From the NCBI RefSeq assembly GCF_002238045.1, contig NZ_NBYO01000001.1:1466161-1490160 (forward strand): DNA of 24,000 bases, read 5' to 3'. Numbering within the stretch: the first letter of the stretch is position 1; the number at the start of each line of letters is the position of its first letter. This DNA is from Notoacmeibacter marinus. Lineage in GTDB: Bacteria; Pseudomonadota; Alphaproteobacteria; Rhizobiales; Rhizobiaceae. The position numbers were made by a program, and so were the translations under genes. The notes under the pieces are model-generated. The model was not told where the DNA came from, did not search any database, and was given only the letters and a program-made list of their open reading frames with translations. Shown piece by piece: positions 7,257 through 23,541 of the stretch.

Positions 7257-7296
7257 GCTTCATTGGCCGCTGAGGCATCGGGCAAATCGCCGGCCG

Positions 7297-8139: not shown

Positions 8140-10331
8140 TGGACTTCTCCTGCAGTGCGGGCCAGCAGGGCGTCGATCTGCGCCTGGGTCATGGGCTCGT
8201 TGCCGATGACGCCGCCTTCGAGGCCCGCCCGAATCATGGCAAAGTCCGCCAGATCGCCCGGGTCGTCCGTCTCATCATGGCAAAGCGTGCCAACCGGCAC
8301 CTCGGTGCACGGCCCGAGATCGGCGGCGCGCTGGCGCATGTTGAGCGTGACGCCGAACGCTTTCGGCCCGTCTGCGCGTTTCGTCATCACCAGCGTCGGA
8401 TGCTCGGCTTTGGCGCCGCCGGCTGTCGTGTAGCGATAGGGCGTTTCGGCCTGCCAATCCGGCGGAAGGGTCCAGGCCAGACCGGTTTCGGCGTCGAAAT
8501 AGCGGCACGGGACCGGCGTATCGCAGCGATAATCCGAGCGGTTTTCGCCCTTGGCGGGCGGGGCGTCGTCCTCTCCAATGTGACTGGCGCTCGGCGGTAT
8601 CAGGTCGATCGTGCCGACATCGAGGGTGATCGCGCCGTCCCGGTCGAGCTTCAGCCGGTAAGCGCCCGGTTCGAGCGCCGCCGGTACGCCGAAGCCTTCC
8701 GCCGTCTCCAGCGTCATCTGCGCCGCTTCCTGTCCGCTCTCATCGAGAAAAATGAGCCTGTCGCCGGCGCGGACAGCACCGTTCAGTCGCAGACCATCGG
8801 GATCGGACGTCACCAATGGTTCAGCCGCGACGATGGCCAGTTCCTGCGGCTCGACTTCGATCGGAAGACGCGCCATCTCGATGCGGTCGCCGTAAGGATC
8901 GGCGACGAGAATGACATCGTAGGGCCCGGGCGACATCGTGGCGAGAATGGAGGTGAATTCGCCGTCCAGTTCCGCACTGTCGATCTCCTCGCGATCGGCG
9001 CCGCCGCGCGGCACGATCCGGTAGCGTGCTTCCGGCATCGGCTCTTCGGCAGAGCCGTCGAGCCAGAGCGTGATCGCCTCGCCATGACGCGCGGGCGTGT
9101 CGAGCGCGATCCGGACGGTCGGCAGAGCCGCCTTCTCCGAGACGATCTCGACAGGCGCGTCCATATAGATGTCGTCGAGATTTTCGCCGGTGATGCGAAG
9201 GCGGTATCGGCCCGGCTCGTCCGGGATGCCCCACTCATCGGCATAGACGCCGACCGGTTCCGCCGAAAGAAAGCTGCGCTTGACGACTTCGCCGACTTCC
9301 TTCGCCCAGACCAGCCGCCAGGTCTGGTTTGGCGGCATCGGATCGCGCACATCGATACGAATTTCGGCCAGTTCGCCGGCCACGAACGGCCCTTCGGTCA
9401 GAAGCGCGAACCGCGTCCGGCCCACATCATAGGGGATTTCGTATCGCTCACCGGCGACCGGGGTGATCTCGATGCTGCCGCGCCCAATTCCCTCGGCCGT
9501 GATCCGCCATTCTTCGTCGCTCAATGTCACCGGCATCGCCTGCAATATCTGGTCCGCGCCGGTCAATGTGCCGAGATCGCGTGTTTCTCCGGTCGCCAGA
9601 TTGGTCGCCGAAAAGGTGATTTCGGACGGCCGGCTGACCCCTTCGGCAGGCGCCAGGACGATCTTGATCTCTGTCGGGTTCGGCTCCTCCGGCTCGCTCG
9701 CCGCGACATCGGCAAAGGCTTCGTTCAGGCTGGCGGCGTCGGACGCATCGAGGTAGCGGCCGCCGGTGTTCTCCGCCAGGCACTGCAGCTGGGCCTTGTC
9801 GTCCGGATCGGTGATGTCAAAGCCGATGACATGCGCCGTGAAATCGACGCCAAGCCGCTCCAGTTCCGCGCCGACCGCGCAGGGGTCTGCGTTGCAGGTC
9901 TCGCGCCCATCGGAGAGCAGCACGACCGTGGCGGCGTTCTCGGTGAATTTCAGAACGTCGGCGGCCTTGCGCACGGCGTCGGAGAGCGGCGTCTTGCCCT
10001 TGGGCGTCAGCCGGTTCACAACGCCCGGCATGGCATCGGCCGATGTCCGGCTCGGCTTGGACATCACCTCGATATCGCTGCAATCGCCCTTGCGGCGGTG
10101 CCCATAGGCGACGAGGCCGGCAGCCACGCCGTCGCGCGCCCAACCGGCGGATAGATCGCCGAAAGCCTGACGGGCGATCTCGATCTTCGTCACGCCGTCG
10201 ATCTGCCCCCACATCGAGCCGGACACGTCGAGCACGACCATGAGTTGGCGGCCATCGTCCGCCGCTATTGCGCATGGTCCTGCCGAGAGCCCTGCGGCAA
10301 GCGCCGCGAAGGCCAGAATTGTCTTTCGCAT
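8136..10331 (-). CDS. Secreted von Willebrand factor type A (vWA) domain protein with C-terminal repeated beta-sandwich-like modules
   Basis: Signal peptide MRKTILAFAALAAGLSAGPCAIA. MIDAS motif LDVSGSM followed by the vWA core (...LTPKGKTPLSDAV...VVLLSDGRETC). The recurrent module ending xPGxYxhxh occurs three times (EPGRYRLRI, SPGPYDVIL, EPGAYRLKL). The tail is Cys-containing. Confidence 0.8.
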   Translation of the reverse strand: MRKTILAFAALAAGLSAGPCAIAADDGRQLMVVLDVSGSMWGQIDGVTKIEIARQAFGDLSAGWARDGVAAGLVAYGHRRKGDCSDIEVMSKPSRTSADAMPGVVNRLTPKGKTPLSDAVRKAADVLKFTENAATVVLLSDGRETCNADPCAVGAELERLGVDFTAHVIGFDITDPDDKAQLQCLAENTGGRYLDASDAASLNEAFADVAASEPEEPNPTEIKIVLAPAEGVSRPSEITFSATNLATGETRDLGTLTGADQILQAMPVTLSDEEWRITAEGIGRGSIEITPVAGERYEIPYDVGRTRFALLTEGPFVAGELAEIRIDVRDPMPPNQTWRLVWAKEVGEVVKRSFLSAEPVGVYADEWGIPDEPGRYRLRITGENLDDIYMDAPVEIVSEKAALPTVRIALDTPARHGEAITLWLDGSAEEPMPEARYRIVPRGGADREEIDSAELDGEFTSILATMSPGPYDVILVADPYGDRIEMARLPIEVEPQELAIVAAEPLVTSDPDGLRLNGAVRAGDRLIFLDESGQEAAQMTLETAEGFGVPAALEPGAYRLKLDRDGAITLDVGTIDLIPPSASHIGEDDAPPAKGENRSDYRCDTPVPCRYFDAETGLAWTLPPDWQAETPYRYTTAGGAKAEHPTLVMTKRADGPKAFGVTLNMRQRAADLGPCTEVPVGTLCHDETDDPGDLADFAMIRAGLEGGVIGNEPMTQAQIDALLARTAGEVQ

Positions 10332-10425: not shown

Positions 10426-11145
10426 GTGGATGCAGATCAGTTTGCCGACTATGTGGAGCGTCTCGGTCGGGCCGACTCCAGGGACGTGGTCTGGTCCGTC
10501 GTTTGCGGTTATTTCGATCAGGCCGGCTTCGATGGGGTGTTCTATGCCGATCTTGCGCCCGGCCGCGCGATCCTTCGCACCAATCTGACGAAATGCTGGA
10601 CCGATCACTACGCCGCCGAGCACTATTTCGACATCGATCCCTTTTTCCGGCATTCCTGCAGCCAGTTGGCCGTGACCTCGACGGGTCAGGACTATTTCGA
10701 CGAACACCCCTATCTCGACCGCCAGGAGCGCCAATTCATTCTAACGGCGGGCGAAACCGGCATGACGGCGGGGTTGGCGCTGCCCGTCCGCCTGGCCGGT
10801 CCGGGAGGGGTCGGCGGCTGGAACGTGGTGACGAGCCATGGCCGTGAAACGGTTGACCGCCTGCGTGGAAGTGGATGGAGGATCTTTCACCTCGCTGCGC
10901 TTCTGGCCCACGAGCGAATGCGCGACATGACCGCGACGGACAAATCCGCGCCGCTGACCGAGCGGGAGATGGAAACGCTGCGCTGGGCGGCCAGCGGCCT
11001 GCGAACCAAGGAAATCGCGCTGAAGATGCGCATCAGCGCGGCGACCGTGGAATTTCACGGCCGGAACGCCCGCCACAAGCTCGGCGCGAAAACCCGCGAG
11101 CAGGCCGTCGCCATCGCCCTGACACGCGGGCTGATAGCGATGTGA
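10426..11145 (+). CDS. LuxR-family transcriptional regulator with an N-terminal autoinducer-binding-like domain (LuxR solo)
   Basis: 239 aa with a GTG start. The N-domain has the W..Y...Y.DIDP pattern (WTDHYAAEHYFDIDPF). The C-terminal HTH reads LTEREMETLRWAASGLRTKEIALKMRISAATVEFHGRNARHKLGA. No LuxI-type synthase is in the window. Confidence 0.85.
   Translation: MDADQFADYVERLGRADSRDVVWSVVCGYFDQAGFDGVFYADLAPGRAILRTNLTKCWTDHYAAEHYFDIDPFFRHSCSQLAVTSTGQDYFDEHPYLDRQERQFILTAGETGMTAGLALPVRLAGPGGVGGWNVVTSHGRETVDRLRGSGWRIFHLAALLAHERMRDMTATDKSAPLTEREMETLRWAASGLRTKEIALKMRISAATVEFHGRNARHKLGAKTREQAVAIALTRGLIAM
10962..11145 (+). repeat. Direct repeat copy 1: the intact 3' end of luxR
   Basis: My hand alignment to 22685-22867 finds 19 substitutions plus one 1-nt gap over 184 nt, about 89% identity. 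Confidence 0.9.
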
Positions 11146-11277
11146 GGGGGCCATGCAAAAAGACGGTCCTGAAAGTTTATCGAACCCCCGATATGTCTCC
11201 GGCCCACGAGGCGGGCTTTGGCCAAAACATCGCTTTACGACGCTGCCCTGACACGCCCCCGCTGCTCGGACCGAAAA

Positions 11278-13134
11278 TTATTGCACTGGACGATATACTG
11301 TAATTCGACGATCAACATATGCGACAGGGACGGACGGTCCCACGGCACGATAGTCCTCCGGGAATTGCAGCCCAATCGGTTTCAGACTTGCGTTGAGCAC
11401 TTCGGTGGAGAGGCCGTTTCGCGCTCCTTCAGGGCCTGGCATATACACGGCGATCCACATGGTGCGCAGATCGTCCTCGGTCAGTCGTGACAGCGCCCAG
11501 GTCAGAAAGTCGTTACTCCCATCATAGCCGGATAGAATCCAGGGCATGGACGGCACCCGGAAATCACCCATCCAGTTCAAGCCCGGAGCGCGGCCCGACA
11601 GGTCCAGCAGAACAGGGCGACCGTCCTGCCGTGCTTCTTTCCATTGCCGCGTCTCGCGCAATGCCGCCATCGCGCGATAGGTCTCGGCGATGGGCGGTGT
11701 GACACGCCAGACTTCGCCGCCGGCCTGGACGCGTTCTGTCGCTGCTGAGAGGGGCTCAAGCATTCGGTAGGGTTTGGAAGCTGCCAGATCGAGCGCGCTG
11801 AATGTAAGGCCCGCGCCGAGAAGCACCGTTATAGCCATCGCCGTATGGCGGCCGCGCTCCAAAGCCAAGGCCACGAGGAAAAGCGCCGCAATGGATGCTC
11901 CCGTGAAGATTGTCGCATGCGAAATGATTCTGCTGGCCGTGCCCAGACTCAACCCATACGGTGCACAACCGAAGAGCGTCGCAAAGAGCGCCAAACGCAG
12001 ATCGCGGCCCGGCGCGAGCCAGACGAGTAGAGATGCGCCCAAGCCAAAAACCCATACGCGCTGGGCCATATTGTCGAAGTCGTTCACGTACTCCACCACG
12101 AGTGCGCATGTCCCGAGAAGTGCCAGCACCGTCAGGATCATCGGCATCCAACGCTGTCGGTCGTAGAGCCGGGTCTGCGCGAGGCCAAGACACAAAAGTG
12201 GCAACATGAGCATCAGCGGTTCGCCGAAGAGATATTCGGCAAACTGGGCAAGCGTGTCGAAAAGCTCTACTATGAGCTTTCCCAGGCTCACGTCGTGACT
12301 GGCGAGGATCGCCGCCGTCTCGAACCCGGTCGTCAAACGTTCCCACAAGATGGACAGCGGGAGCGTTGCGGCGGAGAGCAGCAGTGCAGAGACGAGCCCA
12401 CCCATGATGACGCAGGATGCGACGAGGACGAGCGCTCCGAACACCCGGCCTGCCGGGAGCCGCGCTTGCCACAGCGCGGCGAGGGCGAAGAGCGGCAGAG
12501 CCATTACGACGAAGGCGACGCCGGAGCTGATCTTCAGAAACAGCAAACAGAAGAGTGCCGCACCCAGAGCAAGTCCGCCGCCGATCGCGGCAGTGACCCT
12601 ACCGCTTGTTGCCGCGCTCCACAGTGCCCAGAGCGCAGCCGAGGCGATGAAGACGACCGGGAGGACGAGCCCGTTGTAATTCGGGTCCATCAGAAGCCAT
12701 TTGTAGTAGGCCGAGTTCCCGGCCATGGCTGCAAGAAGCCCGGCAAGCAGAAGCGGCCACGGTTCTCCCTGCCGTCGTGCCCCAAGAATGGCGGGCACCA
12801 GTAAAGCGAGCGGGGCCGCGAAGATGAAGATGAGCGTGGCAAGCCGGATGGTTTGCAACGAGGCGTCCCCTGCGAAGGCGGCGACCAACGGACCGAAACC
12901 CGTCAGATTGCTGGCGATCTCGGCGTATTCCGTGTGCATGAGGACGTAGAAGGCACTGTCGGACAGCTCTGGTCCGAGGTCGATCGCGCCCCAAAGGAAG
13001 AACAGGGCCCATCCCAGCGCACCTGCCGCCAGAGCCAACGAGAGCCAGGGGACGAGATCGGCAAGAACACCCATCGCCCGCGTTGCGACCCTGATGGAGG
13101 CCGCCTTTGCTGGCAAAGTGCTGGGCGCGGTCAT
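11278..13134 (-). CDS. Polytopic inner-membrane protein with a C-terminal soluble domain; candidate GT-C-type (ArnT/Gtr-like) polyprenyl-phosphate-sugar-dependent glycosyltransferase
   Basis: About a dozen hydrophobic segments are followed by a ~150-aa non-hydrophobic C-terminus. Acidic residues sit in the first predicted loop (DLGPELSDS). Start set at ATG 13134 (GGAGA RBS) rather than 13245. It is transcribed divergently from the sugar operon. The fold assignment is inference. Confidence 0.55.
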   Translation of the reverse strand: MTAPSTLPAKAASIRVATRAMGVLADLVPWLSLALAAGALGWALFFLWGAIDLGPELSDSAFYVLMHTEYAEIASNLTGFGPLVAAFAGDASLQTIRLATLIFIFAAPLALLVPAILGARRQGEPWPLLLAGLLAAMAGNSAYYKWLLMDPNYNGLVLPVVFIASAALWALWSAATSGRVTAAIGGGLALGAALFCLLFLKISSGVAFVVMALPLFALAALWQARLPAGRVFGALVLVASCVIMGGLVSALLLSAATLPLSILWERLTTGFETAAILASHDVSLGKLIVELFDTLAQFAEYLFGEPLMLMLPLLCLGLAQTRLYDRQRWMPMILTVLALLGTCALVVEYVNDFDNMAQRVWVFGLGASLLVWLAPGRDLRLALFATLFGCAPYGLSLGTASRIISHATIFTGASIAALFLVALALERGRHTAMAITVLLGAGLTFSALDLAASKPYRMLEPLSAATERVQAGGEVWRVTPPIAETYRAMAALRETRQWKEARQDGRPVLLDLSGRAPGLNWMGDFRVPSMPWILSGYDGSNDFLTWALSRLTEDDLRTMWIAVYMPGPEGARNGLSTEVLNASLKPIGLQFPEDYRAVGPSVPVAYVDRRITVYRPVQ

Positions 13135-13246
13135 CGTATGATCTCCATTCTGCCCCGTGGAGTGGACGGATTGCGGCTTTGGATTCGGCAGCGTGTGGTG
13201 TATGTGCCAAACGATCTGCGTTGTCCATGAGAGGTGTCCCACCACA

Positions 13247-13627
13247 ATGTTCAGCTATGCGACGTCCTTGGTTTTGCTGGCCTTGAGCATAATGTCGGTG
13301 GCGTCGTCTCAGTTGATCCTGAAATGGCGATTGGGCGATCTGACCGGTGAAGGCGACGGACGTTTGCCGTTGAGCCGATTTATCTGGGCCGCGGTCTCGG
13401 ATGTCTGGGTCTGGGCCGGCGGTGCTTTGATCATCGTCAGCGCTGCCATGTGGTATGCTGCACTGACGCGGCTTCCCTTGTCCTTCATGATGCCCGCCGC
13501 CGCCCTTATCGCGCCCATCACCGTGATTTTCGCATATTTCCTTCTTCGCGAGCCGGTCTCACTCGGTCAGGCTTCGGCGATCCTGGTCATCACGGCAGGT
13601 GTCGCATGGCTGAGCTACCAGCAGTAG
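13247..13627 (+). CDS. Small 4-TM EamA/SMR-like membrane protein, ArnE/ArnF-like candidate flippase for a polyprenyl-phosphate-linked sugar
   Basis: 126 aa from ATG 13247. It has four hydrophobic segments. SVASSQLILKW and LREPVSLGQASAILVITAGV resemble ArnE/ArnF (…SVAGQL…, …HEPVS…). It is the first gene of the operon. Confidence 0.6.
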   Translation: MFSYATSLVLLALSIMSVASSQLILKWRLGDLTGEGDGRLPLSRFIWAAVSDVWVWAGGALIIVSAAMWYAALTRLPLSFMMPAAALIAPITVIFAYFLLREPVSLGQASAILVITAGVAWLSYQQ

Positions 13628-13635
13628 GACAGGGC

Positions 13636-14514
13636 ATGGACAGGCTGCTCGATCGTCTCGATTCTTTTACAGAACGGCTGGACCGGGCAGCACTGGTGGA
13701 TGCCGTTCTCCGTTATCGGGATATGCCCCGTGACCGGGCGACGCTGATGATTGAGACGTATCTGGGCGAGATGCCGACAGGCGCACGGATCGTGGCGCCG
13801 CATCTACAGCCCGGCCAACGCATCCTGGAGGTCGGCTCCGGCATCGGCGTGCTGAGTGCATTCCTGTTGAGCGAAGGTTTCGAAGTTCTCGGGATCGAAC
13901 CGGGCCAGGACGGCGGTTTCAGCTTCATGACTGCGCTCTGCCAAGCGGTGCTCGATCAGATCCCGGCGGATTTTCGCCCGGATATCCTGCCCATCGGAGC
14001 CGAGGCGCTGACACCGGCGGAGCATGGGACCTTCGATTTGATCTTCTCGGCCAATGTGCTGGAGCATATCATGGCGCTCGACGCGGCGATTCCAGCCATG
14101 CGCGATGTGCTGAAACCCGACGGACTGATGCGGCACCTGTGTCCGAACTACCGCTTTCCCTACGAGCCGCATCTTGGCGTACCCCTGCTTCCTTTCGCGC
14201 CTCAGGCGACGCGTCACCTCATGCCCGGCAAGGTTGCCGCGAACCATGAAATCTGGTCGGGCGTGAATTTCATTACCGCTCACCGCATTGCACGTCTGGC
14301 GCGCGCGAACGGACTGTCCATCGCCTTCGATGATAGCGTGATGGGTGCCTATATGCGCCGGCTCAACGACGATCCCATTTTCGCCAGGCGCCATGGCGGC
14401 CTGCTGGGCGCCGTGGCGCGACGACCGCGCCTTGTGGAAGGGCTGGCGCGCCTGCTGGACGCGGTGCCTTCGGGATGGGCCAGCCCAATGACGCTGACAT
14501 TGCGTCACAGCTGA
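13636..14514 (+). CDS. Class I SAM-dependent methyltransferase
   Basis: Motif I ILEVGSGIGVLS and post-I/II FDLIFSANVLEH. The start at ATG 13636 lies 8 nt after the preceding stop; ATG 13606 is an alternative. Confidence 0.8.
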   Translation: MDRLLDRLDSFTERLDRAALVDAVLRYRDMPRDRATLMIETYLGEMPTGARIVAPHLQPGQRILEVGSGIGVLSAFLLSEGFEVLGIEPGQDGGFSFMTALCQAVLDQIPADFRPDILPIGAEALTPAEHGTFDLIFSANVLEHIMALDAAIPAMRDVLKPDGLMRHLCPNYRFPYEPHLGVPLLPFAPQATRHLMPGKVAANHEIWSGVNFITAHRIARLARANGLSIAFDDSVMGAYMRRLNDDPIFARRHGGLLGAVARRPRLVEGLARLLDAVPSGWASPMTLTLRHS

Positions 14515-14554
14515 GCCCGTTTGTCATTGAACGAAATACTTGTATGGACACTCC

Positions 14555-15502
14555 ATGAACAAATCTTTCGAAATTATTCTTGTCACCGGCGGGTTAGGCT
14601 TCATCGGCAAGCATTTCGTGCGACGCTGCCTGGATAACGGTTGCTTTGTGCGCAACATCGATAAGGTGAGCTACGCGGCAGACCTTAAATCGATGGTCGA
14701 ATTCGACGCCCACCCGCATTACCGGCTCCTGCAGATGGATGTCGCGGAGTGTGACTTCCTGCCGGAATGCGACGTCATCGTAAACTTTGCCGCCGAAAGC
14801 CATGTCGACAACGCCATTACGTCCAACAAGCAGTTCTGCCAGTCGAATTTCATGGGCGTCCAGAACATGCTTGAGCGGGTGCGTGCCAAGCAGGCGCGTG
14901 AACGCCCTCTGTTCATTCAGATCTCCACCGACGAGGTCTATGGCGACATCTCCAACGGAAAGCATTCCGAAGCCGATCTTTTGAAACCCTCGAACCCCTA
15001 TTCGGCGACGAAGGCCTCGGCGGACATGCTTGTCACCAGCTGGGGCCGGACCTACGGGATCGACTGGAACATCATGCGTCCGACCAACAATTACGGTTGC
15101 CAGCAATATCCCGAGAAGCTTATCCCCAAGAGCGCCTGGCGGATGCGGCGCGGTCAGCCGGCGCTGATGCACGGGGATGGCAGTTATGTGCGTTCCTGGC
15201 TCCATGCAGAAGATACGGTCGATGCCATCCTGACGGTGATCGAGCGGGGGGAGCGCAACAGCATCTACAATATCGGCAGCGATACCGAATTGCGTAACAT
15301 CGAAGTGCTTCGGGCGATCGCCGAGCATCTGAAGGTGCCCGAGGAAGATGCATGGATGGCGACCGGCAACCGAACGGGCCAGGATGTCCGCTACAGCCTC
15401 GACGACAGCAGGCTGCGAGAACTCGGCTGGGCGCCGAAGCGCCAATTTTTCGAGGAGTTGCCCGGCATTGTAGACAGCTTCGATTTCATGCGCTTCAGCT
15501 GA
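14555..15502 (+). CDS. rmlB: dTDP-glucose 4,6-dehydratase-like SDR (RmlB/RfbB family)
   Basis: ILVTGGLGFIGKHF, NFAAESHVDNAI, ISTDEVYG, NPYSATKASADML and NNYGCQQYPEKLIP together match the RmlB signature set. Start set at ATG 14555. Confidence 0.85.
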   Translation: MNKSFEIILVTGGLGFIGKHFVRRCLDNGCFVRNIDKVSYAADLKSMVEFDAHPHYRLLQMDVAECDFLPECDVIVNFAAESHVDNAITSNKQFCQSNFMGVQNMLERVRAKQARERPLFIQISTDEVYGDISNGKHSEADLLKPSNPYSATKASADMLVTSWGRTYGIDWNIMRPTNNYGCQQYPEKLIPKSAWRMRRGQPALMHGDGSYVRSWLHAEDTVDAILTVIERGERNSIYNIGSDTELRNIEVLRAIAEHLKVPEEDAWMATGNRTGQDVRYSLDDSRLRELGWAPKRQFFEELPGIVDSFDFMRFS

Positions 15503-15530
15503 GTGAGCGGAGCCAAGCGAGAGCCATACG

Positions 15531-16685
15531 ATGAAGGTGGATTTCTACAAACACGGATTGACCGAGACGGATGCGGCGGGGATCGCCGAGGTCCTCAAGA
15601 CGCCCTTCCTGACGACCGGGCCCGTCGCGCATGGGGTCGAGGACCAGCTTCGGCGCTATTTCGACGTGCCCCACGCCGCGCTGGTCAACAGCTGGACGAA
15701 CGGCGCAGTGGCGACGCTCCTTGCCATGGGCGTCGGACCTGGTGACGAAGTCCTTGTCCCGGCAGAGACATTCGTCGCATCTGCCAATGTCGTCGAATTG
15801 ATCGGTGGGACAGCGCGGCTCGTGGATGTGGATCCCGATACGCTCCTCCTTACACCCGAAACTGCCGCTGCTGCCGTGACCGAGCGGACGAAAGCCGTCA
15901 TGCCGGTCCACCTCTATGGCCGGATGGTGGATATCGCTGCGCTCCGTGATGCGATCGAAGCTGCCGCAGCGCCCGGCCAACGCATATACATCCTGGAGGA
16001 TTGCGCCCACTGCTTTGAAGGAAAACTGGACGGGGACCGTCCGGGGGCTCATTCCGATGCGGCGATCTTTTCATTCTACGCGACGAAGAACGTCACATGC
16101 GGCGAGGGCGGCGCGGTGATCCTGCGGGATGATGCCCTGCATGGGAGCCTGTTGGAGACCCGCCTTCACGGCATGTCCGCGACCGCGATCGATCGCTTCA
16201 AAGGCGGTAAGTATAATCACTGGGGCATGGAGCAATTGGGCGTGAAGGCGAACCTGCCCGATCTGCTGGCGGCGCTTCTGCCGAGGCAAATCGAGACGAT
16301 CGACGAGCTGCTTTCCCAACGTCATGCCCTCGCCGGTCGCTACCGCGCCGCGTTCGACGGCACGGGACTTCGGATGCCGGCCATCGTCGAGGGCGCGACG
16401 GATGCCGCGCACCTCTTCACCATCGGGGTGAATGAGCGTGACCGGGTCATCGCCATTCTCAACAACGCGGGAATCTCGGTGACGGTGAATTTCAGGGCGC
16501 TTCCCGACCTCGGTTATTACGCCAAGAAATACCCCGAGAGCCTGGCCGCCTGTCCGGCCGCCGTCGCCTGGGGACGCCAGACGATCAGCCTGCCGTTTTA
16601 TCCGGGTATGCCGCAGGCGCATCAGGATCACGTTATCGAGACCGTTCTGCAGATTGCGGCATCGCCAGAGTTCCAGCTGCTATGA
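15531..16685 (+). CDS. DegT/DnrJ/EryC1/StrS-family PLP-dependent sugar aminotransferase
   Basis: 384 aa with ...ALVNSWTNGAVATLLAMGVGPGDEVLVP... and the catalytic-Lys region FSFYATKNVTCGEGG. Confidence 0.9.
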   Translation: MKVDFYKHGLTETDAAGIAEVLKTPFLTTGPVAHGVEDQLRRYFDVPHAALVNSWTNGAVATLLAMGVGPGDEVLVPAETFVASANVVELIGGTARLVDVDPDTLLLTPETAAAAVTERTKAVMPVHLYGRMVDIAALRDAIEAAAAPGQRIYILEDCAHCFEGKLDGDRPGAHSDAAIFSFYATKNVTCGEGGAVILRDDALHGSLLETRLHGMSATAIDRFKGGKYNHWGMEQLGVKANLPDLLAALLPRQIETIDELLSQRHALAGRYRAAFDGTGLRMPAIVEGATDAAHLFTIGVNERDRVIAILNNAGISVTVNFRALPDLGYYAKKYPESLAACPAAVAWGRQTISLPFYPGMPQAHQDHVIETVLQIAASPEFQLL

Positions 16686-17812
16686 CTTGCGTGGCCTGTG
16701 GGACGGCGACATTGGATCTGCCGGTGCCTCACCCCACACAATCTATGCTCAGCGATGGGCGAATCTCGCAGCGCGTGCTGGCAAAATCGCGTTGTCCGGC
16801 CTGCGGCCTCATCCAGCATTCGGAATTGCCGGACATAGCCACCGTGCGGAGCTTCTACGGGGCGGAATATAACCTGGCCGTGGAGACTGCGCCATCCGAC
16901 GTGTCCCGGTCGTCTGCCTATGCTGATCTTCTGCTGGCGCGCCTGGATGCCGTACCTCTGCGCGTTATGGAAATCGGGTGCGGGTCAGGCCATACGCTGC
17001 GCGCCCTGGCCGCGACCTGGCAGAACACCGCCTTCGTGGGCTATGAGGCTGCGCCCCAAGTTGCGGCTTCGGCCAAAGGTGCAGACCCGCGCGTGACGAT
17101 ACGGAACGGCTTTGTCGAAGATCTGCTTCTGCCCGAGGCCGGAGCCGGATTCGACATGGTCTTTTCGATCAACGTCTTCGAACATGCCGCCGATCCGGTT
17201 GCCTTCCTCGCGGCTAAGGCTGCGCAGCTCACGATGGGCGGCGCGATCGTGATCATCTGTCCAAAGTCGGTTCCACCCAACATGGAGCTGGTTTTCCAGG
17301 ATCACATTTACAGCTTCACACCGGAAGCTGTCGCCGCATTGGCCGAACGGGCTGGGCTCGTTTTGATAGAACATGATCCGGCTCCGGCTGGACTGGGCGA
17401 TTTCCAACTCTTCGTCTTTTCCCGCGACGGTCAGAGCGCCGAGACCGCTTCTGCCGCCTCGCATGACGATTTTGCGACATACATGGCTGGTTGGTCGCGG
17501 CTCGACGCGGTGCTGTCAGAAGCCCTGAACGACATCACCGGCCATGCTTTCGTTTTTGGCGCGGGAGAAATGGCAGGGCTCCTTCGGGCCTATGCGCCCG
17601 CGACCTGGGGAGCGGTGGAAGCGTGCGTCGTGGACGACCTTGCCGGCGCGCGTGCGCTGGGAGTGCCGGTAAAAAAGCTGGAAGAGGTTCAGCCGGGCAA
17701 TTGCGACGCCGTCATCGTCGCCACGCATCCCCGCACCCAGAAGGCCATTGCGCGGCGGTTCGGTGCATCGGAGGCGACCATCCTTACCTTCGACGAGCTG
17801 ATCGCCCGATAA
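16682..17812 (+). CDS. SAM-dependent methyltransferase with an N-terminal Cys4 zinc ribbon and an extra C-terminal domain (NDP-hexose C-methyltransferase-like architecture)
   Basis: CVACG...CPACG ribbon, motif I VMEIGCGSGHTL, then FDMVFSINVFEH, followed by a ~120-aa C-terminal Rossmann-like region (FVFGAGEMAG). ATGA overlap with the aminotransferase stop. Confidence 0.7.
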   Translation: MTCVACGTATLDLPVPHPTQSMLSDGRISQRVLAKSRCPACGLIQHSELPDIATVRSFYGAEYNLAVETAPSDVSRSSAYADLLLARLDAVPLRVMEIGCGSGHTLRALAATWQNTAFVGYEAAPQVAASAKGADPRVTIRNGFVEDLLLPEAGAGFDMVFSINVFEHAADPVAFLAAKAAQLTMGGAIVIICPKSVPPNMELVFQDHIYSFTPEAVAALAERAGLVLIEHDPAPAGLGDFQLFVFSRDGQSAETASAASHDDFATYMAGWSRLDAVLSEALNDITGHAFVFGAGEMAGLLRAYAPATWGAVEACVVDDLAGARALGVPVKKLEEVQPGNCDAVIVATHPRTQKAIARRFGASEATILTFDELIAR

Positions 17813-17828
17813 GACAGGAGACCGTTCC

Positions 17829-18662
17829 ATGGAAATGGCAGTCAAGAATTACGGCGTGAAGCATCGAACTCCGCCAGGCGATGTCGTGGATCGCGCCCTG
17901 GAGCAACTGAAGCTCGTCGGATACGCAGTGGTCGACTCAGGGTACGATGCCGAAGAGCAAGCCGAAATCGCCGCCGCATTCGATCGCGCTCACGCGGCGC
18001 AGGCGGAAAGATACGGCGCCGATGCACTGCGCGAGATCGACGAGCACAATACCGTGCGGATGCCCATGCTCTATGAGGCGATCTTCGGAAAGCTGGCGCA
18101 GAACCCGCGGGTCCTGGCGATCACCGAGCACCTGATTGGCGGCTCATATAGCACCGGGACTTTCATCCTCAATCAGCAGAACGGGATCGTCAATCCGGCC
18201 GGGAAGGACTACAATCAGGCAGCCTATCACCGCGACCTGCCGTATCAGCACTTCACCAGCTCGCGTCCTCTCGCGCTGAACGCACTTTACTGTGTCGATC
18301 CCTTCACAAGCGAAAATGGCGCGACACTCGTCGTTCCAGGTACGCACAAAAGTGAACCGTTTCCGTCCGATGACACGGTGCGCGCCCTGGAGCGGCAGAT
18401 CACGGCATCGGCAGGCAGTTTCCTCGTTCTCGACTGCATGGTCTATCATTCCGGGGCTCCCAACCGAAGCACCGCCGATCGCCGCGCTGTCAATCACGTC
18501 TACACGATCCCGATGATCCGTCAGCAGATCGACATGCCGGCGATCCTGGGCCATCGGGACGACCTGTCGGACGACGCGCGAAAGCTTTTCGGTTACGGCG
18601 CGCAGCACATCACGTCGCTCGACGCCTACTACGCCTCACGGCGTTCTCGATTGGAAGGCTAG
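17829..18662 (+). CDS. PhyH-family Fe(II)/2-oxoglutarate-dependent oxygenase
   Basis: 277 aa with a candidate HxD...H facial triad (YHRDLPY ... VYHSGAPNRS). AGGAG RBS lies 8 nt upstream. Confidence 0.7.
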   Translation: MEMAVKNYGVKHRTPPGDVVDRALEQLKLVGYAVVDSGYDAEEQAEIAAAFDRAHAAQAERYGADALREIDEHNTVRMPMLYEAIFGKLAQNPRVLAITEHLIGGSYSTGTFILNQQNGIVNPAGKDYNQAAYHRDLPYQHFTSSRPLALNALYCVDPFTSENGATLVVPGTHKSEPFPSDDTVRALERQITASAGSFLVLDCMVYHSGAPNRSTADRRAVNHVYTIPMIRQQIDMPAILGHRDDLSDDARKLFGYGAQHITSLDAYYASRRSRLEG

Positions 18663-18666
18663 GGAT

Positions 18667-19407
18667 ATGACAAGCCAGAAGACGGTCGTCATCCTCCAGT
18701 CGAACTACATCCCCTGGAAGGGCTATTTCGATCTGATGAATGCCGCGGATGTGTTCGTGCTCTTCGATGAAGTGCAGTTCTCCCGCCGTGACTGGCGCAA
18801 CCGCAACAAGATCATCATCCAGGGACAGCCACGCTGGCTGACCATACCGGTGCAATCGAAGGGCAAGTATGCCGCCCCGGTCTCGGAAATCGAAGTCACC
18901 GATGGCAGCTGGGCCCAGAAGCACTGGACCTCCATCGAGCTCGCCTACGGCAAATCACCGTTCTTCCGGGACTACGCCCCTGGCCTCGAAACCACTTATG
19001 GAGAGGCCGCCAAGGAAACGCACCTGAGTTCGATCAACCGACTTTTCCTTGACCATCTGGCGACGGCCCTGGGCATAAACGTCACCTTCGGGCGGTCCGA
19101 TTCCGTCCCGCGACAAAGCGATGATCCGGCCGAACGCCTGATCGAAATTTGCCGGGGGTACGGCGCGACGCGCTATCTTTCCGGGCCGGCGGCCAAGAGT
19201 TACATTGATCCCCAGCTATTCGTCGATGCCGGGATAGACCTCCGCTATGCCGATTATTCCGGCTATCCGACCTATGCGCAGCAAAGCGAGGATTTCGAGC
19301 ACGGGGTGAGTATCATCGACATGTTGATGACCTTGGGGCCCGACACGGCCAGCCACCTGAAGTCGCAGATCCCCGGCGGCTTGTTCGAAACGCCAGAAAA
19401 GCGCTAA
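18667..19407 (+). CDS. WbqC-family protein (biochemical function unknown; typical of polysaccharide loci)
   Basis: The N-terminus VVILQSNYIPWKGYFDLMNAADVFVLFDEVQFSRRDWRNRNKI matches the WbqC-like pattern (hxQPxYhPWxGYF...D). Confidence 0.65.
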   Translation: MTSQKTVVILQSNYIPWKGYFDLMNAADVFVLFDEVQFSRRDWRNRNKIIIQGQPRWLTIPVQSKGKYAAPVSEIEVTDGSWAQKHWTSIELAYGKSPFFRDYAPGLETTYGEAAKETHLSSINRLFLDHLATALGINVTFGRSDSVPRQSDDPAERLIEICRGYGATRYLSGPAAKSYIDPQLFVDAGIDLRYADYSGYPTYAQQSEDFEHGVSIIDMLMTLGPDTASHLKSQIPGGLFETPEKR

Positions 19408-19416
19408 AGGGCCTTC

Positions 19417-21000
19417 ATGCGCATTTCCCTCGTTACCCCGCTCTACCGAAGCGCATCCAGCCTGCGTGAGTTGTGCGACAGGGCTGATGCGACGATGAGA
19501 GCGCTGACGCCCGATTACGAGATCGTACTGGTCAATGATGGTTGTCCTGACAATAGCCTGACGGTCGCACGCGAGATTGCAACGGAAAATCCCCATGTCC
19601 GGGTCATCGATCTGTCACGAAATTACGGCCAGCACCCAGCGCTGATGACAGGGCTGGAGGCCGCGACCGGCGATTACATCTTCATTTGTGACAGCGATTT
19701 GGAAGAAGAACCGGAATGGATCGCGACCTTCTTTTCGCGACTTGTGGAAGAAGACGATTGCGACGTCGTCTATGGCATCCAGCAGGCGCGCAAAGGCAAC
19801 ATGTTCTATCGTGGCGCCAGGCGCCTGTTCTACCGAACATTGAGCTGGACGTCCGGCATCGATTTTCCCGCCAACATCATCACTGCCCGCCTGATGACCC
19901 GTCGCTACGTCGATGCGGTCCTTCAGTTCAGGGAACGAGAGCTTTTCGCCGCAGGCATCTGGCACATGGCGGGCTTTCGCCAGATTCCTTACGCCGTGGA
20001 CAAACCACCACGCGATGACACCACCTACACATTCCGAAAGCTCGTGGGCATCTTCGTCAACGCGGTAACGGCCTTCTCCGTGCGGCCGCTTCAGGCGATC
20101 TCCATTGCAGGCGTTGTGCTCTCGCTTTCCGCAATCATTTTTATCATCTATCTGATATTCCAGCGGTTTTTCGGAGTAGTGCTGGAAGGTTGGACGTCCG
20201 TTATCGCAGCGATTCTTCTTGTTGGCGGGGTGACGCTTTTCTTCAACGGCGTCATCGCAATCTATCTTGCGAAAGTGTTTCTCGAGGTGAAGCGACGCCC
20301 GCTGACGATTGTGCGAGAGGTCATCAATCCCGAGCTTCCGCCCGCAATGATCGAAGGCGGCAATTATCGCAGCATCGTTTCCCATTACGAGGCATGTCTC
20401 GAGGATTACGGAGTGGGTCCCAAGGCGGTGGACTGGAAGGACGAGCATGCCGCCACGACGCGCTACGACGTCATGCTCGACCTACTGCCTAAAACAAAAG
20501 AGCCCGTGACACTTCTCGATTTCGGATGCGGGCTCGGCGGCCTGAAGAAGCATATCGACGCGCGGGGCCTCGACCATATCCAATATGAAGGCCTCGACCT
20601 TTCGCCAGCCTATGTTGAGGCCGCACGGAATGCCCTGCCCGGAACGACGATTCACTGTCTCAATGTTCTGGAAACGCCGGAGGCGCTGGGCAGCTACGAT
20701 TACATCGTGATGAACGGGATCTTCACGCGGCGCCAGGACCTGACCGAAGCGGAGATGTTTTCCTATCTGGAACGACTTGGCGGGGCTGTCTTTGCCAGGG
20801 CCAAACGGGGGCTGGCCTTCAACGTCATGTCCATGCATGTCGACTGGAAGAACGAGAAGCTGTTTCACCCAGAAACTGCCGCACTCGCGCAGGTCGTATG
20901 CCGCGCATTCTCCCGGCACATAGTTCTGCGGGAGGATTATGGGCTCTATGAATGCACGTGCTACGCCTACAAGGCGGCCACATCCAGGAAAGACGTCTGA
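19417..21000 (+). CDS. Fusion protein: GT2 polyprenyl-phosphate glycosyltransferase (ArnC/GtrB/DPM1-like, two TM helices) plus a C-terminal class I SAM methyltransferase domain
   Basis: GT2 part: ISLVTPLYRS..., EIVLVNDGCPDNS, RNYGQHPALMTGLEAATGDYIFICDSDLEEEP. TM helices: AISIAGVVLSLSAIIFIIYLIF and WTSVIAAILLVGGVTLFFNGVIAIYLAKVF. MTase part: LLDFGCGLGGL, YDYIVMNGIF. Confidence 0.8.
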   Translation: MRISLVTPLYRSASSLRELCDRADATMRALTPDYEIVLVNDGCPDNSLTVAREIATENPHVRVIDLSRNYGQHPALMTGLEAATGDYIFICDSDLEEEPEWIATFFSRLVEEDDCDVVYGIQQARKGNMFYRGARRLFYRTLSWTSGIDFPANIITARLMTRRYVDAVLQFRERELFAAGIWHMAGFRQIPYAVDKPPRDDTTYTFRKLVGIFVNAVTAFSVRPLQAISIAGVVLSLSAIIFIIYLIFQRFFGVVLEGWTSVIAAILLVGGVTLFFNGVIAIYLAKVFLEVKRRPLTIVREVINPELPPAMIEGGNYRSIVSHYEACLEDYGVGPKAVDWKDEHAATTRYDVMLDLLPKTKEPVTLLDFGCGLGGLKKHIDARGLDHIQYEGLDLSPAYVEAARNALPGTTIHCLNVLETPEALGSYDYIVMNGIFTRRQDLTEAEMFSYLERLGGAVFARAKRGLAFNVMSMHVDWKNEKLFHPETAALAQVVCRAFSRHIVLREDYGLYECTCYAYKAATSRKDV

Positions 21001-21001
21001 A

Positions 21002-21667
21002 ATGCCCAAGCCTATCGTAATCTTCGGGACGGGAGAACTGGCAGAGGTCGCGGCGTTCTATTTCGAGGCCGACGCAGGCCGGGAGATTGCGGCCTTCACC
21101 ATCGACGGAGACCGGATCGGGTCGAATCGTTTCGCCGGAAAAGCCGTGCTGCCCTTCGAAGATATCGTGACAAGTCATGGACCCGGCGACCACGATCTCT
21201 TCGTGGCGGTCGGCTATTCGGGGCTGAACGACCTGCGGGCGGCGAAATGCGCCGAGGCGGAAGGCAAGGGTTACACTCTGCCGAGCTACGTTTCGTCCAG
21301 GGCGACAACATTCTCGGATTTCGCCTGTGGGTCCAACTGTTTCATCCTCGAAGACAACACCATCCAACCATTCGTGCGCATCGGACGCGGTGTGACGCTA
21401 TGGAGCGGCAACCATATCGGGCATCACAGCAGCATCGGAGATTTCGCCTTTATCAGCAGCCATGTCGTGATCTCCGGCGGCGTCAGTGTCGGCGCCCATA
21501 GCTTCATAGGGGTCAACGCGACCACCAACGACCACATCGCAATCGGAGCGCGCTGCGTCATCGGTTCGGGTACGACGGTCGCAAAGTCCATTCCTGACGA
21601 GACGGTCATCACGTCGGAGCCGGGCAAGATCGCCAAGATCCCGAGTTCCCGCCTCCGGGGTTTTTGA
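21002..21667 (+). CDS. NeuD/PglD-type sugar N-acyltransferase (N-terminal Rossmann-like domain plus left-handed beta-helix)
   Basis: MPKPIVIFGTGELAEVAAFYFE... is followed by hexapeptide repeats (IGRGVTLWSGNHIGHHSSIGDFAFISSHVVISGGVSVGAHSFIGVNATT). Start set at ATG 21002, one nt after the preceding stop. Confidence 0.8.
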   Translation: MPKPIVIFGTGELAEVAAFYFEADAGREIAAFTIDGDRIGSNRFAGKAVLPFEDIVTSHGPGDHDLFVAVGYSGLNDLRAAKCAEAEGKGYTLPSYVSSRATTFSDFACGSNCFILEDNTIQPFVRIGRGVTLWSGNHIGHHSSIGDFAFISSHVVISGGVSVGAHSFIGVNATTNDHIAIGARCVIGSGTTVAKSIPDETVITSEPGKIAKIPSSRLRGF

Positions 21668-21670
21668 CGG

Positions 21671-22585
21671 GTGGAGTTCAGGCGACTCAAGCGGGTCTTC
21701 GGTGCGGAGGACGGCCCTGACTGGATGGTCAGCCATGCCGCCTATCCAACCCCAGTTTGGCTGTCGGACGATCATCTGAGAGTCTTCATCGTCGCACGCG
21801 ACAGCGACAATCGGGGTTCTGTCGGGTGGGTGGATCTGGACCCTCAGGATCCCACTCAGGTCGTTGCCGTTTCGGAAACGCCGGCTCTGCGGCCCGGTCC
21901 CACCGGAACGTTCTACGACCGTGGAATATCGATCGGCTCGATCCATCGGCGGCCGGACGGCGCGCTCTGGATGTATTTCCTTGGATGGAACAAGTCGGCC
22001 GACGTTCCCTTCCGCAACTCCATCGGCCTTGCCATAGACAGATCGGGGCGCGGTGACAGGTTCGAGCCTGCCTTCGAGGGTCCGCTCATCGACCGCAGCC
22101 GCCACGATCCATTCACGCTGAGCTATCCTTACACCAGTCCGCCACAGGCGACCGGTTGCCGGTGGCACATGCTCTACGGAACCAGTCGCGGAGGCGGTCT
22201 CGACGAGCGACAGATGCAACATGCGTTGTCCGAAGCCTGGTCGTCTGACGGGATCGACTGGTCACCGACAGGGCGTGATGTGATTCCCCTGGAGGAAGGC
22301 GAATACGGGTTGTCTCGACCCTGGATTTTCGATGCGCTGGGCGCACGGCAGGTCGTCTTCGCCATACGCCGCGCACAATACACGATAGGCTGGTCGAGCT
22401 GGGATCCGGATGCCGGTATCTGGCATCGCCAATCGCGGGACCTTCTGGGCCCTGGTGCCAAATGGGACGGTGAGGCCACCTGTTACCCGGCCGTGACCCA
22501 CCTGGTTGGAAGGATTCTGTTGTTCTATAATGGCAATGGTTATGGGCGGACGGGCTTCGGTGTTGCCGAATGGACCGGACGATAG
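21671..22585 (+). CDS. Cytoplasmic 5-bladed beta-propeller protein of the GH43/32/68/130-like superfamily (function unknown)
   Basis: Recurrent blade-like patterns: DGALWMYFLGWN...SIGLAIDRSG, AWSSDGIDWSP, ILLFYNGNGYGRTGFGVAEW. No signal peptide. GTG start at 21671; ATG 21725 is an alternative. Confidence 0.5.
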   Translation: MEFRRLKRVFGAEDGPDWMVSHAAYPTPVWLSDDHLRVFIVARDSDNRGSVGWVDLDPQDPTQVVAVSETPALRPGPTGTFYDRGISIGSIHRRPDGALWMYFLGWNKSADVPFRNSIGLAIDRSGRGDRFEPAFEGPLIDRSRHDPFTLSYPYTSPPQATGCRWHMLYGTSRGGGLDERQMQHALSEAWSSDGIDWSPTGRDVIPLEEGEYGLSRPWIFDALGARQVVFAIRRAQYTIGWSSWDPDAGIWHRQSRDLLGPGAKWDGEATCYPAVTHLVGRILLFYNGNGYGRTGFGVAEWTGR

Positions 22586-22684: not shown

Positions 22685-22867
22685 GCGGGAGATGGAAACG
22701 CTGCGCTGGGTGGCCAGCGGTCTGCGAACCAAGGCGATCGCGCTGAAGATGCGCATCAGCGCGGCGACCGTGGAATTTCGCGGACGCAACGCCCGCAGGA
22801 AGCCCGGCGCCAAAACCTGCGAGCGGCTGTCGCCATCGCCCTGACGCGCGGCCTGATTGCGGTGTTA
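22685..22867 (+). pseudogene. LuxR-family HTH remnant: direct repeat copy 2, 5'-truncated and frameshifted
   Basis: It translates as ...EMETLRWVASGLRTKAIALKMRISAATVEFRGRNARRKPGAKTCE. A 1-nt deletion relative to copy 1 then brings in a premature TGA. The ancestral stop position reads TTA. There is no N-terminal domain or start codon upstream. Confidence 0.85.
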
Positions 22868-22918
22868 GGGCCGAAGTACTAGTATGGACTGATGTGTCCA
22901 GAACGGACACTTGAAAAA

Positions 22919-22965
22919 TGGCGATCCCGACAGAATTCAAACCTGTCCCGCAGATTCAAATCCTG
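22919..22965 (-). pseudogene. Partial, decayed copy of the 3' half of tRNA-Arg(CCT) (att-like direct repeat)
   Basis: 22919-22946 matches 23465-23492 at 26 of 28 nt. The next 10 nt match 9 of 10 after a 2-nt gap. Similarity fades through the anticodon arm, and there is no 5' half. Confidence 0.75.
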
Positions 22966-22980: not shown

Positions 22981-23340
22981 TCAACAGCGACAATTCAGCT
23001 CATACTCAGGCTCAGGTTCGCAGAAAAGCTCTTGCCGGGGAAATTCGATCTTGCCGCCAGGAAAAGTTGCGAAGAAGCCGCCATTCGCCCAGCACCACTC
23101 GCCATAACCAAATGCCTTCACATGGGCATCGCATGATCGGCCCAAGGCAAGCGTCTCGCGCTCAGACTTGATCTGTGTACCAGCGCCGTGCCCGATGAAT
23201 CGGCCGACCGGATTGACAGACTTCAAGCTATAACCATTGGCATTGCAGGTCAGCCTATATTCATGCCCCTCTCCAGACATGTAGGCCGACGCTGGAGCCG
23301 CGAGGGCTATCAGAAAAATTCCTGCAAGTCCCAGCTTCAT
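22981..23340 (-). CDS. Small secreted cysteine-rich hypothetical protein
   Basis: Start at ATG 23340 after GGAGAGG. Signal peptide MKLGLAGIFLIALAAPASA. The ~100-aa mature part has six Cys. It is the only gene in the lower-GC islet. Confidence 0.55.
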   Translation of the reverse strand: MKLGLAGIFLIALAAPASAYMSGEGHEYRLTCNANGYSLKSVNPVGRFIGHGAGTQIKSERETLALGRSCDAHVKAFGYGEWCWANGGFFATFPGGKIEFPRQELFCEPEPEYELNCRC

Positions 23341-23464
23341 GCGCCTCTCCATGTTGCGTGGAACAGCCGAGCATAGCTGTATCTCGTTGTATTTCAATGG
23401 TTGCCAGTGCAACATGATCCAACATGAAATCAGCCAGATTGAAAACGTAAGCTTTTAAAATAGT

Positions 23465-23541
23465 TGGCGATCCCGACAGGATTCGAACCTGTGACCCTCA
23501 GATTAGGAATCTGATGCTCTATCCTGCTGAGCTACGGGACC
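23465..23541 (-). tRNA. tRNA-Arg (anticodon CCT), 77 nt with encoded CCA
   Basis: Cloverleaf folded by hand: GGTCCCG TA GCTC AGCAGGATA GAGC A TCAGA TTCCTAA TCTGA GGGTC ACAGG TTCGAAT CCTGT CGGGATC G CCA. Confidence 0.9.

Follow-up and report, generated by a model that had tools for sequence, protein, structure and literature searches.

In our study, a block of 11 tightly packed genes of Notoacmeibacter marinus was found at 11278–22585 (all coordinates are positions in the window, the whole stretch of 24,000 nucleotides that was analyzed, unless a locus is named). The block is probably a horizontally acquired, self-contained three-component (Arn/Gtr-style) module of periplasmic glycosylation, which carries its own donor-sugar pathway. 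This reading is drawn from the gene content and protein families of the block, the predicted glycosyltransferase class C (GT-C) fold of its large membrane protein, the acidic loop of that protein, the conservation of the cassette and its island setting. The first gene (G1) was present on the minus strand and the remaining ten (G2–G11) on the plus strand, where the spacing was 1–40 nucleotides and G5 and G6 overlapped through an ATGA at 16682–16685. The gene models were taken from a listing of open reading frames (ORFs) and from codon-position GC (GC3), the protein families were assigned by Pfam and NCBIfam profile scans, and transmembrane segments by hydropathy.

All the genes described in a first-pass annotation of this DNA were found at their coordinates, together with the short gaps (40 nucleotides or less) and the overlap between the plus-strand genes. 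The three methyltransferase domains that it had named, in G3, G6 and the C-terminus of G9, matched Methyltransf_23/12/11/25 of Pfam and belong to the class-I S-adenosylmethionine methyltransferases. It had also reported no wzx/wzy, wzm/wzt, chain-length regulator, initiating transferase or rmlA in the block; our scan of the window's ORFs likewise gave none of wzx, wzy, wzm/wzt, Wzz, an initiating phosphoglycosyltransferase and rmlA. The same gene set recurs on independent contigs and the arrangement is therefore not due to chance.

Membrane components of the module

The G1 protein was 100% identical to NCBI B7H23_07070 of N. marinus. It belongs to a family of proteins of about 600 amino acids (aa), of which an exhaustive profile search gave 551 representatives at E ≤ 1e-3 (the family size of about 550 refers to clusters at 50% identity). 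Neither a GT-C family nor any other model was matched in the Pfam and NCBIfam scans of G1 and 80 relatives, with Pfam taken down to E = 10 for G1, and the family profile showed no homology to ArnT of Escherichia coli (hhalign, probability 0.2%). The AlphaFold2 (AF2) model of G1, made from an 80-sequence alignment, had a predicted local distance difference test score (pLDDT) of 95 and a predicted TM score (pTM) of 0.93. When the PDB was searched with this model by Foldseek, the top nine matches were all GT-C enzymes (STT3, EmbA/B/C, ArnT, AftA and PglB); Pmt was found further down the list, the probability reached 1.0, and transporters were matched at low probability only. Since the TM scores were about 0.4, the match indicates a fold class and not a particular family. 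The topology of the model was GT-C-like: the first transmembrane helix (TM1) is long, two short helices are present in the first periplasmic loop, and the C-terminal periplasmic domain is of the alpha/beta type. The Asp59 residue at the start of the first periplasmic loop was invariant in 80 family members, and the second-loop motif D150-P-x-Y-N (DPxYN, residues 150–154) was highly conserved. The polytopic protein had been called GT-C-like at first sight, and a missing GT-C fold or acidic catalytic loop had been named as evidence to the contrary; a GT-C fold was predicted, with GT-C enzymes as its best PDB matches, and the acidic residue of the loop was invariant. On the model, G1 is predicted to be a GT-C-fold enzyme in which Asp59 would be catalytic. 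A role of G1 as an oligosaccharyltransferase was also considered and judged unlikely, as a WWDYG-type motif is absent.

The residues 1–305 of G9 matched Glycos_transf_2 (Pfam). Among PDB sequences, residues 2–306 matched GtrB (5ekp, 6.5e-47) and ArnC (9hwj, 4.6e-40; 9bhc), with three ArnC structures overall, and in NCBIfam the PgfS model (1e-46) and the ArnC model (4e-41) were matched. The identity with E. coli ArnC was 31% over 312 aa and extended through both transmembrane helices; the DxD region was aligned as DSDLEEEPE in G9 and DADLQNPPE in ArnC. Two hydrophobic stretches were found by hydropathy at about residues 222–292. On its sequence, the GT2 part of G9 is assigned to the polyprenyl-phosphate subgroup of GT2, and its earlier description as an ArnC/GtrB-type GT2 with two C-terminal transmembrane helices is borne out by the full-length match to 5ekp and the ArnC structures and by hydropathy. 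Since G9 and G5 scored under the NCBIfam equivalog cut-offs for ArnC and ArnB, they are homologues and not orthologues of these enzymes. The GT2 and the methyltransferase were separate genes in the loci L005, L007, L009, and L096. Some of the tailoring may take place at the membrane and perhaps act on the lipid-linked sugar, as is hinted by the cytoplasmic methyltransferase fused to G9 and by how tightly WbqC is coupled to the GT2 and GT-C genes.

By hydropathy, the G2 protein contained four hydrophobic segments. Its matches to EamA (Pfam, E 0.002) and ArnF (NCBIfam, E 0.003) were weak, the latter with 17.9 bits where the cut-off is 99, and BLASTP against E. coli ArnF gave nothing. Of its earlier description as a small four-helix ArnE/F-like protein, the four segments stood, and the likeness to ArnF proved weak. 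A G2 homologue was divergently placed beside the G1 homologue in the loci L001, L002, and L008, and a GtrA-family protein was found in its place in two loci of distant G1 relatives (L013 and L014). The weak similarity, size, topology and conserved position make G2 a candidate flippase. In the locus L002 (6469–8995), two proteins without Pfam match (384 and 461 aa) were found in the place of G3, along with a second small membrane protein of 126 aa, which hints at a heterodimeric ArnE/F-style flippase there.

Donor-sugar pathway and proposed mechanism

The G4 protein matched the GDP_Man_Dehyd and Epimerase families (Pfam) and the dTDP-glucose 4,6-dehydratase model TIGR01181 (308 bits, 5e-92), the score being under the equivalog cut-off of 365 bits. 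The nearest PDB sequences were all dTDP-glucose 4,6-dehydratases (2hun at 1e-69), and the match to the ArnA model of NCBIfam (3.5e-5) was far weaker. The scan of the window's ORFs gave no nucleotidyltransferase. The G5 protein matched DegT (Pfam, 1e-85); its nearest PDB sequence was ArnB (1e-57, runner-up 2.5e-44), and the identity with E. coli ArnB was 35% over 384 aa. The aminotransferase is nearest to C-4 enzymes and probably acts at C-4. The G10 protein matched TIGR03570 (NeuD/PglB/VioB) with 164 bits, above the cut-off of 160.8, and its nearest PDB sequences were the perosamine N-acetyltransferase PerB, PglD, and VioB. The RmlB-like dehydratase, DegT aminotransferase and NeuD/PglD-type acyltransferase of the earlier description were thereby recovered; the dehydratase was under and the acyltransferase over the curated cut-off.

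The nearest PDB sequences to G6 were sugar 3-C-methyltransferases (7e-11 to 4e-7), namely KijD1 (5t64, 7e-11) and TcaB9 (3ndi). The alignment with these enzymes spanned about 230 residues, and an N-terminal CxxC...CxxC four-Cys motif was seen in the G6 translation. Because G6 resembles the TcaB9/KijD1 C-methyltransferases, the donor sugar may be branched through C-methylation by G6. The G3 protein matched Methyltransf_23 (Pfam, 2e-13), with orthologues in the loci L008 (71%), L012 (51%), L005, and L009, and the G7 protein matched PhyH (Pfam, 7e-25).

The G8 protein matched WbqC (PF08889, 4e-72), a family with at least 8000 homologues that contained invariant His and Asp residues. No functional study of WbqC was found in the literature searched, and no PDB sequence was matched by G8. 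The AF2 model of G8 (pLDDT 92.6) gave no convincing match in a fold search of the PDB; the best was BshC (probability 0.85, TMq 0.44), and the matches to metal-binding solute-binding proteins at TM 0.2 were noise. A role of WbqC as an analogue of ArnD was tried and found unsupported, the model being unlike NodB-/YdjC-type deacylases or any PDB hydrolase. WbqC genes of the G8 family adjoined G1-family genes in the loci L005, L007/L013, and L008. The G11 protein had no Pfam match even at E = 10. PF04041/PF22847 is present in homologues about 40% identical to it, and the family profile reached GH130 phosphorylases (9fj8, 6e-11; 7fip) over part of the sequence only, and also GH117/32/43 enzymes. 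Through these homologue domains and the family profile, the beta-propeller proposed at the outset holds at the superfamily level (GH130/GH43/GH32). No hydrophobic segment was found in G8 or G11 by hydropathy. The G11-like propeller was present in >530 metagenome loci; G11 was always directly downstream of G10, and the pair was adjacent in the loci L008–L012 and L096.

The catalytic steps, nucleotide carrier, regiochemistry, lipid carrier, flippase role and acceptor are given here as we infer them. G4 would dehydrate a nucleoside diphosphate (NDP)-glucose, most likely the dTDP-glucose of the host, to a 4-keto-6-deoxy sugar; that dTDP-glucose is the starting sugar we purely infer. G6 may place a C-methyl branch beside the keto group, G5 would aminate C-4 and G10 would N-acylate the amine. 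The GT2 part of G9 would then move the sugar onto undecaprenyl phosphate at the cytoplasmic face, and before or after this loading the sugar would be tailored by the methyltransferase domain of G9 and by G3, G7, G8, and G11. The lipid-linked sugar would be flipped by G2, and G1 would use the Asp59 of its first periplasmic loop to transfer the sugar to an acceptor that is already present in the periplasm. From the contexts of the relatives, this acceptor is most likely lipopolysaccharide (LPS).

Conservation and genome setting of the cassette

The nearest relatives of G1 were 66% identical and metagenomic, and they were found in the same cluster with G2 and G4–G9 at 60–86% identity. In the closest metagenomic relative (L002, 12637–15146; L004, 9108–11617), the genes after the G1 orthologue were HTH_17 (excisionase-like) and a VapE-like primase, and the cassette is carried there on an integrative or mobilisable element. 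The locus L005, whose G1 relative was 61% identical, contained a sugar N-formyltransferase (4824–5621; Formyl_trans_N and N_formyltrans_C domains) in place of the hexapeptide acyltransferase, and the parallel with ArnA is thereby stronger. When loci were anchored on close homologues of WbqC or G11, the same cassette was found, for instance in Mesorhizobium albiziae, Bosea and Bradyrhizobium erythrophlei. The locus L012 was nearly collinear with the window and its surroundings contained no O-antigen genes. The view that the block is a stand-alone add-on outside full O-antigen loci was supported by the close cassettes (the window, L012, and L010), which stand alone. The viral and metagenome scans gave no G1 relatives and no evidence of phage carriage; the contig scan for the G1 family (15 sequences) gave only one locus, in a metagenome-assembled genome of Planktotalea, and missed N. 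marinus itself, possibly through masking.

A co-occurrence survey was carried out on 32 metagenome loci of ≥ 11 kb, anchored on G11 homologues. The acyltransferase (G10) and the GT2 (G9) were each present in 31/32 loci, the match to GT2 reaching through the transmembrane region in 29, followed by WbqC (G8) in 30/32, DegT (G5) in 27/32 and PhyH (G7) in 18/32. The RmlB-like dehydratase (G4) was found in 6/32 and the C-methyltransferase (G6), an accessory part of the cassette, in 4/32. An ORF of ≥ 400 aa with ≥ 8 transmembrane segments was present within 6 kb in 24 of the 32 loci. In all the loci examined, the large polytopic ORFs belonged to many unrelated sequence families and few to the G1 family; among ten such partners sampled, GT-C families of Pfam were matched by some, one hitting TMEM260-like/PMT_2 and one weakly GT87. 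The pattern seen is a donor module that is conserved and a membrane transferase that is exchanged, as is known for three-component systems (PMC11127046). Among the neighbors of distant G1-family members were GtrA-family flippases, GT2s and genes of other deoxysugar pathways, and one such member, in an LPS-linked context, adjoined PagL and a Wzy_C protein. LPG_synthase_TM (PF03706) proteins were present beside the cassette in two loci (L011, 11624–12550; L012, 12387–13451), maybe as alternative flippases or accessory membrane components.

The whole block, as an island of 11.5-kb, was bracketed by an imperfect direct repeat of 187 nucleotides (about 90% identity, one indel of 1 nucleotide), which suggests an insertion or duplication at the 3' end of luxR (Table 1). 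A 28-nucleotide copy of the 3' end of tRNA-Arg (CCT), with 2 mismatches, was present at 22919–22946, 48 nucleotides past the right repeat and about 520 bp from the intact tRNA-Arg (CCT) gene (23465–23541, minus strand). This att-like scar enclosed one ORF (22981–23415, minus strand, 144 aa) with a signal-peptide-like N-terminus, and the GC fell to 0.56 at the scar. The GC was 0.603 in the block against 0.640 in the upstream flank. No integrase was found to be present. We read the block as a horizontally acquired island at a recombination hot spot, which fits the idea of an add-on without proving it. The counts of the promoter and terminator scans were not above those of shuffled sequence, and the divergent region between G1 and G2 contained no significant sigma-70-like site, inverted repeat or lux-box-like site.

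Table 1. Coordinates of the genes, the divergent region and the flanking repeats in the window.
Feature	Position	Strand	Description
Left direct-repeat copy	10962–11148	+	3' end of the intact luxR-type gene 10426–11145
G1	11278–13134	-	618-aa polytopic membrane protein, predicted GT-C-fold glycosyltransferase (attach step)
G1/G2 divergent intergenic region	13135–13246		Presumed promoters
G2	13247–13627	+	126-aa small membrane protein with four transmembrane segments, candidate flippase
G3	13636–14514	+	S-adenosylmethionine-dependent methyltransferase
G4	14555–15502	+	RmlB-like NDP-hexose 4,6-dehydratase
G5	15531–16685	+	DegT-family pyridoxal phosphate aminotransferase, ArnB-like, probably C-4
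G6	16682–17812	+	Methyltransferase, candidate NDP-4-ketosugar C-methyltransferase
G7	17829–18662	+	PhyH-type Fe(II)/2-oxoglutarate dioxygenase
G8	18667–19407	+	WbqC-family protein, core cassette member
G9	19417–21000	+	ArnC/GtrB-type GT2 (1–305, two transmembrane segments) fused to methyltransferase domain (about 350–460)
G10	21002–21667	+	NeuD/PglB/VioB-family hexapeptide N-acyltransferase
G11	21671–22585	+	Soluble GH130/DUF377-like five-bladed propeller protein
Right direct-repeat copy	22685–22870	+	Orphan frameshifted luxR 3' fragment, stop codon lost; right block edge

The upstream flank contained znuC/znuA/zur, fumarase, FGGY kinase, DctP, a VWA protein and LuxR. The luxR-type gene beside the island encodes an autoinducer-binding protein, and the ORF scan of the window gave no luxI. 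Regulation of the island by the adjacent LuxR was considered and found unsupported: no LuxR homologue accompanied the cassette elsewhere and the 3' end of luxR is the insertion or duplication site; the adjacency looks incidental. At 8130–10331, two overlapping ORFs were present on opposite strands (674 aa on the plus and 731 aa on the minus strand), of which the minus one was favored by GC3 and a VWA-domain match; the 674-aa ORF is an example of the spurious antisense ORFs that this GC-rich genome typically shows. An ORF of 439 aa at 7114–8433 had no Pfam match and an unconvincing codon-position GC (0.68/0.58/0.69), and it is perhaps not a real gene, or a true gene lies there in another frame.

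Comparison with known systems and rival readings

The block was compared with the ArnBCADTEF system, which places L-Ara4N on lipid A (E. coli b2253–b2258). In the proposed scheme, the block would follow the logic of Arn: an oxidation of the NDP-sugar, a C-4 transamination and an N-acylation, followed by loading onto undecaprenyl phosphate by a GT2 with two C-terminal transmembrane segments, flipping by a small protein with four such segments and transfer by a GT-C enzyme. However, the oxidizing enzyme of the block is a 4,6-dehydratase whereas that of Arn is the ArnA decarboxylase, and the acylation is by a hexapeptide acyltransferase instead of a formyltransferase. The block has no ArnD-type deformylase, G1 shows no homology to ArnT, G2 is unlike ArnF, and the methyltransferases, PhyH, WbqC and the GH130-like protein are additional. 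With the GtrABC O-antigen glucosylation, Gml, Gac, CsbB/YfhO and pentofuranose/GT136 systems (PMC11127046), the block shares a sugar synthase of the polyprenyl-phosphate type, a GT-C that varies and, in G2, a candidate for the flippase. Three-component systems are often present on mobile elements, with the GT-C swapped between systems, and the block is probably alike in this. Unlike in the Gtr-type systems, the donor is not a housekeeping sugar but would be built by a multi-enzyme pathway encoded in the operon, Pfam gave no match to the GtrA family (PF04138) in the window, the GT2 carries a fused methyltransferase and the GT-C has no Pfam/NCBIfam match. The first-pass annotation had stated that the tailoring set matches neither Arn nor Gtr, and the block was found here to be a member of neither: the ArnA decarboxylase, ArnD, any transferase of the ArnT family and any flippase of the GtrA family are missing from it, and no formyltransferase or deacetylase-family protein was found in the window by Pfam and NCBIfam.

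The dTDP-D-Qui4NAc, dTDP-Fuc4NAc and GDP-PerNAc pathways (RmlB-VioA-VioB, WecE-WecD, and Per-PerB; for the RmlA/RmlB/VioA/VioB route, see PMC7685785) resemble the block in combining a 4,6-dehydratase (RmlB-like in the block), a DegT aminotransferase and a NeuD/PglB/VioB acyltransferase. They differ from it in that the block has no RmlA, G5 is nearer to ArnB than to VioA or WecE, the product apparently goes to a polyprenyl-phosphate GT2 and not to a cytoplasmic O-unit glycosyltransferase, and C-, O- or N-methylation and an oxygenase are added. With the NDP-4-ketosugar C-3 methyltransferases TcaB9/KijD1/TylC3, G6 shares the alignment over about 230 residues and the four-Cys motif, but its similarity is low and it is a candidate only for the C-methyltransferase role.

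Several observations weigh against the reading of the block as a self-contained periplasmic glycosylation module. G1 has no sequence similarity to any characterized GT-C, and its fold matches were moderate in TM score (about 0.4), with E-values no better than 1e-4. G2 is weakly EamA/ArnF-like and shows no similarity to its E. coli counterpart ArnF. The absence of rmlA from the window and the score of G4 under the equivalog cut-off leave the nucleotide sugar uncertain. The RmlB-like gene is missing from most distant cassettes, and the donor chemistry may therefore differ from a simple NDP-level route. Four of the eleven proteins (G3, G7, G8, and G11) have no assigned step, and the support is wholly computational.

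The likeness to Arn leads to one unlikely alternative, a charge modification of Arn type, where the N-acyl or N-formyl group would have no purpose other than driving the pathway and would be removed on the lipid carrier by WbqC as an analogue of ArnD/NaxD/LgmC, and the resulting cationic 4-amino-4,6-dideoxyhexose on lipid A or core phosphates would alter resistance to cationic peptides. The steps of the block mirror those of Arn one-to-one, from an oxidizing enzyme of the short-chain dehydrogenase/reductase type through an ArnB-like aminotransferase (35%), an N-acylating enzyme, an ArnC-like GT2 and the four-helix protein to a GT-C. The close relative L005 even carries a real sugar N-formyltransferase instead of the hexapeptide enzyme, WbqC, with its invariant His and Asp, tracks the GT2 and GT-C genes, and PagL lies beside one relative. 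However, the model of WbqC does not resemble NodB-/YdjC-type deacylases or any PDB hydrolase, the locus L013 has WbqC and no recognizable acyltransferase, G1 has no sequence relation to ArnT, and the presence of three methyltransferase domains and a dioxygenase points to a sugar that is neutral and heavily decorated and not to a simple cationic one. It is likewise quite unlikely that the same donor module acts on an acceptor that is either a protein or a polymer other than LPS (pilin, S-layer, periplasmic glucan or exopolysaccharide), G1 acting like PMT, TfpW or an oligosaccharyltransferase. The best Foldseek matches of G1 were STT3 subunits, LPS genes are absent from the window, and the membrane partners of the cassette are very diverse, one having a TMEM260-like/PMT_2 domain, which is a protein O-mannosyltransferase family. 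Against this, a WWDYG-like motif is not evident in the C-terminal domain of G1, the block encodes no candidate acceptor protein, and the informative contexts of the relatives consist of LPS or polysaccharide genes (PagL, Wzy_C, GT4, and UDP-sugar dehydrogenase).

The missing sequence-family assignment of G1 and its moderate fold similarity would also suit an ordinary cytoplasmic cluster of sugar biosynthesis, in which G9 is a GT2 of the usual kind and G1 a membrane protein that is no glycosyltransferase, such as a polymerase, ligase, transporter or acyltransferase. This is very unlikely: G9 was aligned with ArnC and GtrB through the transmembrane helices that define the polyprenyl-phosphate subgroup, GT-C enzymes filled all the top nine fold matches of G1 and transporters appeared at low probability only, relatives of G1 adjoin GtrA-family flippases, and the window has no Wzx/Wzy, ABC exporter or initiating transferase. 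A periplasmic module with its own donor pathway therefore remains the preferred reading. A wider view, which we put forward tentatively and hold to be less likely than not, is that the window shows a member of a large and so far uncharacterized class of periplasmic glycan decoration. A conserved donor cassette (the ArnC-type GT2 with its tethered methyltransferase, WbqC, the hexapeptide acyltransferase and the GH130-like propeller) would build and tailor an aminosugar partly on undecaprenyl phosphate, WbqC and the propeller would be new classes of enzymes that act on lipid-linked sugars, the cassette would be combined with many unrelated GT-C families, each specific for an acceptor, and the G1 family would be a new glycosyltransferase family.

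Three-component periplasmic glycosylation is established and widespread, with highly divergent GT-C partners (PMC11127046, PMC8035078), and so the principle is not new. What appears to be new is the multi-step pathway to a methylated N-acyl aminodideoxyhexose donor, the fusion of GT2 and methyltransferase, the WbqC and GH130-like proteins as conserved partners and a family of GT-C enzymes without Pfam/NCBIfam match. No description of such a system was found in the literature searched, the coverage of which was incomplete and did not include CAZy.

Periplasmic add-on glycosylation alters serotype, phage receptors and the interactions with complement and antimicrobial peptides. To our knowledge, the sugars delivered in the known examples are simple (Glc, Gal, GlcNAc, Ara4N, GalN, GalA and pentofuranoses). 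If the reading is true, this repertoire would be extended to a pathway-built, methylated and possibly branched N-acyl aminodideoxyhexose, and a GT-C family without Pfam/NCBIfam match would be defined. The block would also give a testable functional context for two widespread orphan families, WbqC and the GH130-like propeller, and would provide a portable cassette for glycoengineering.

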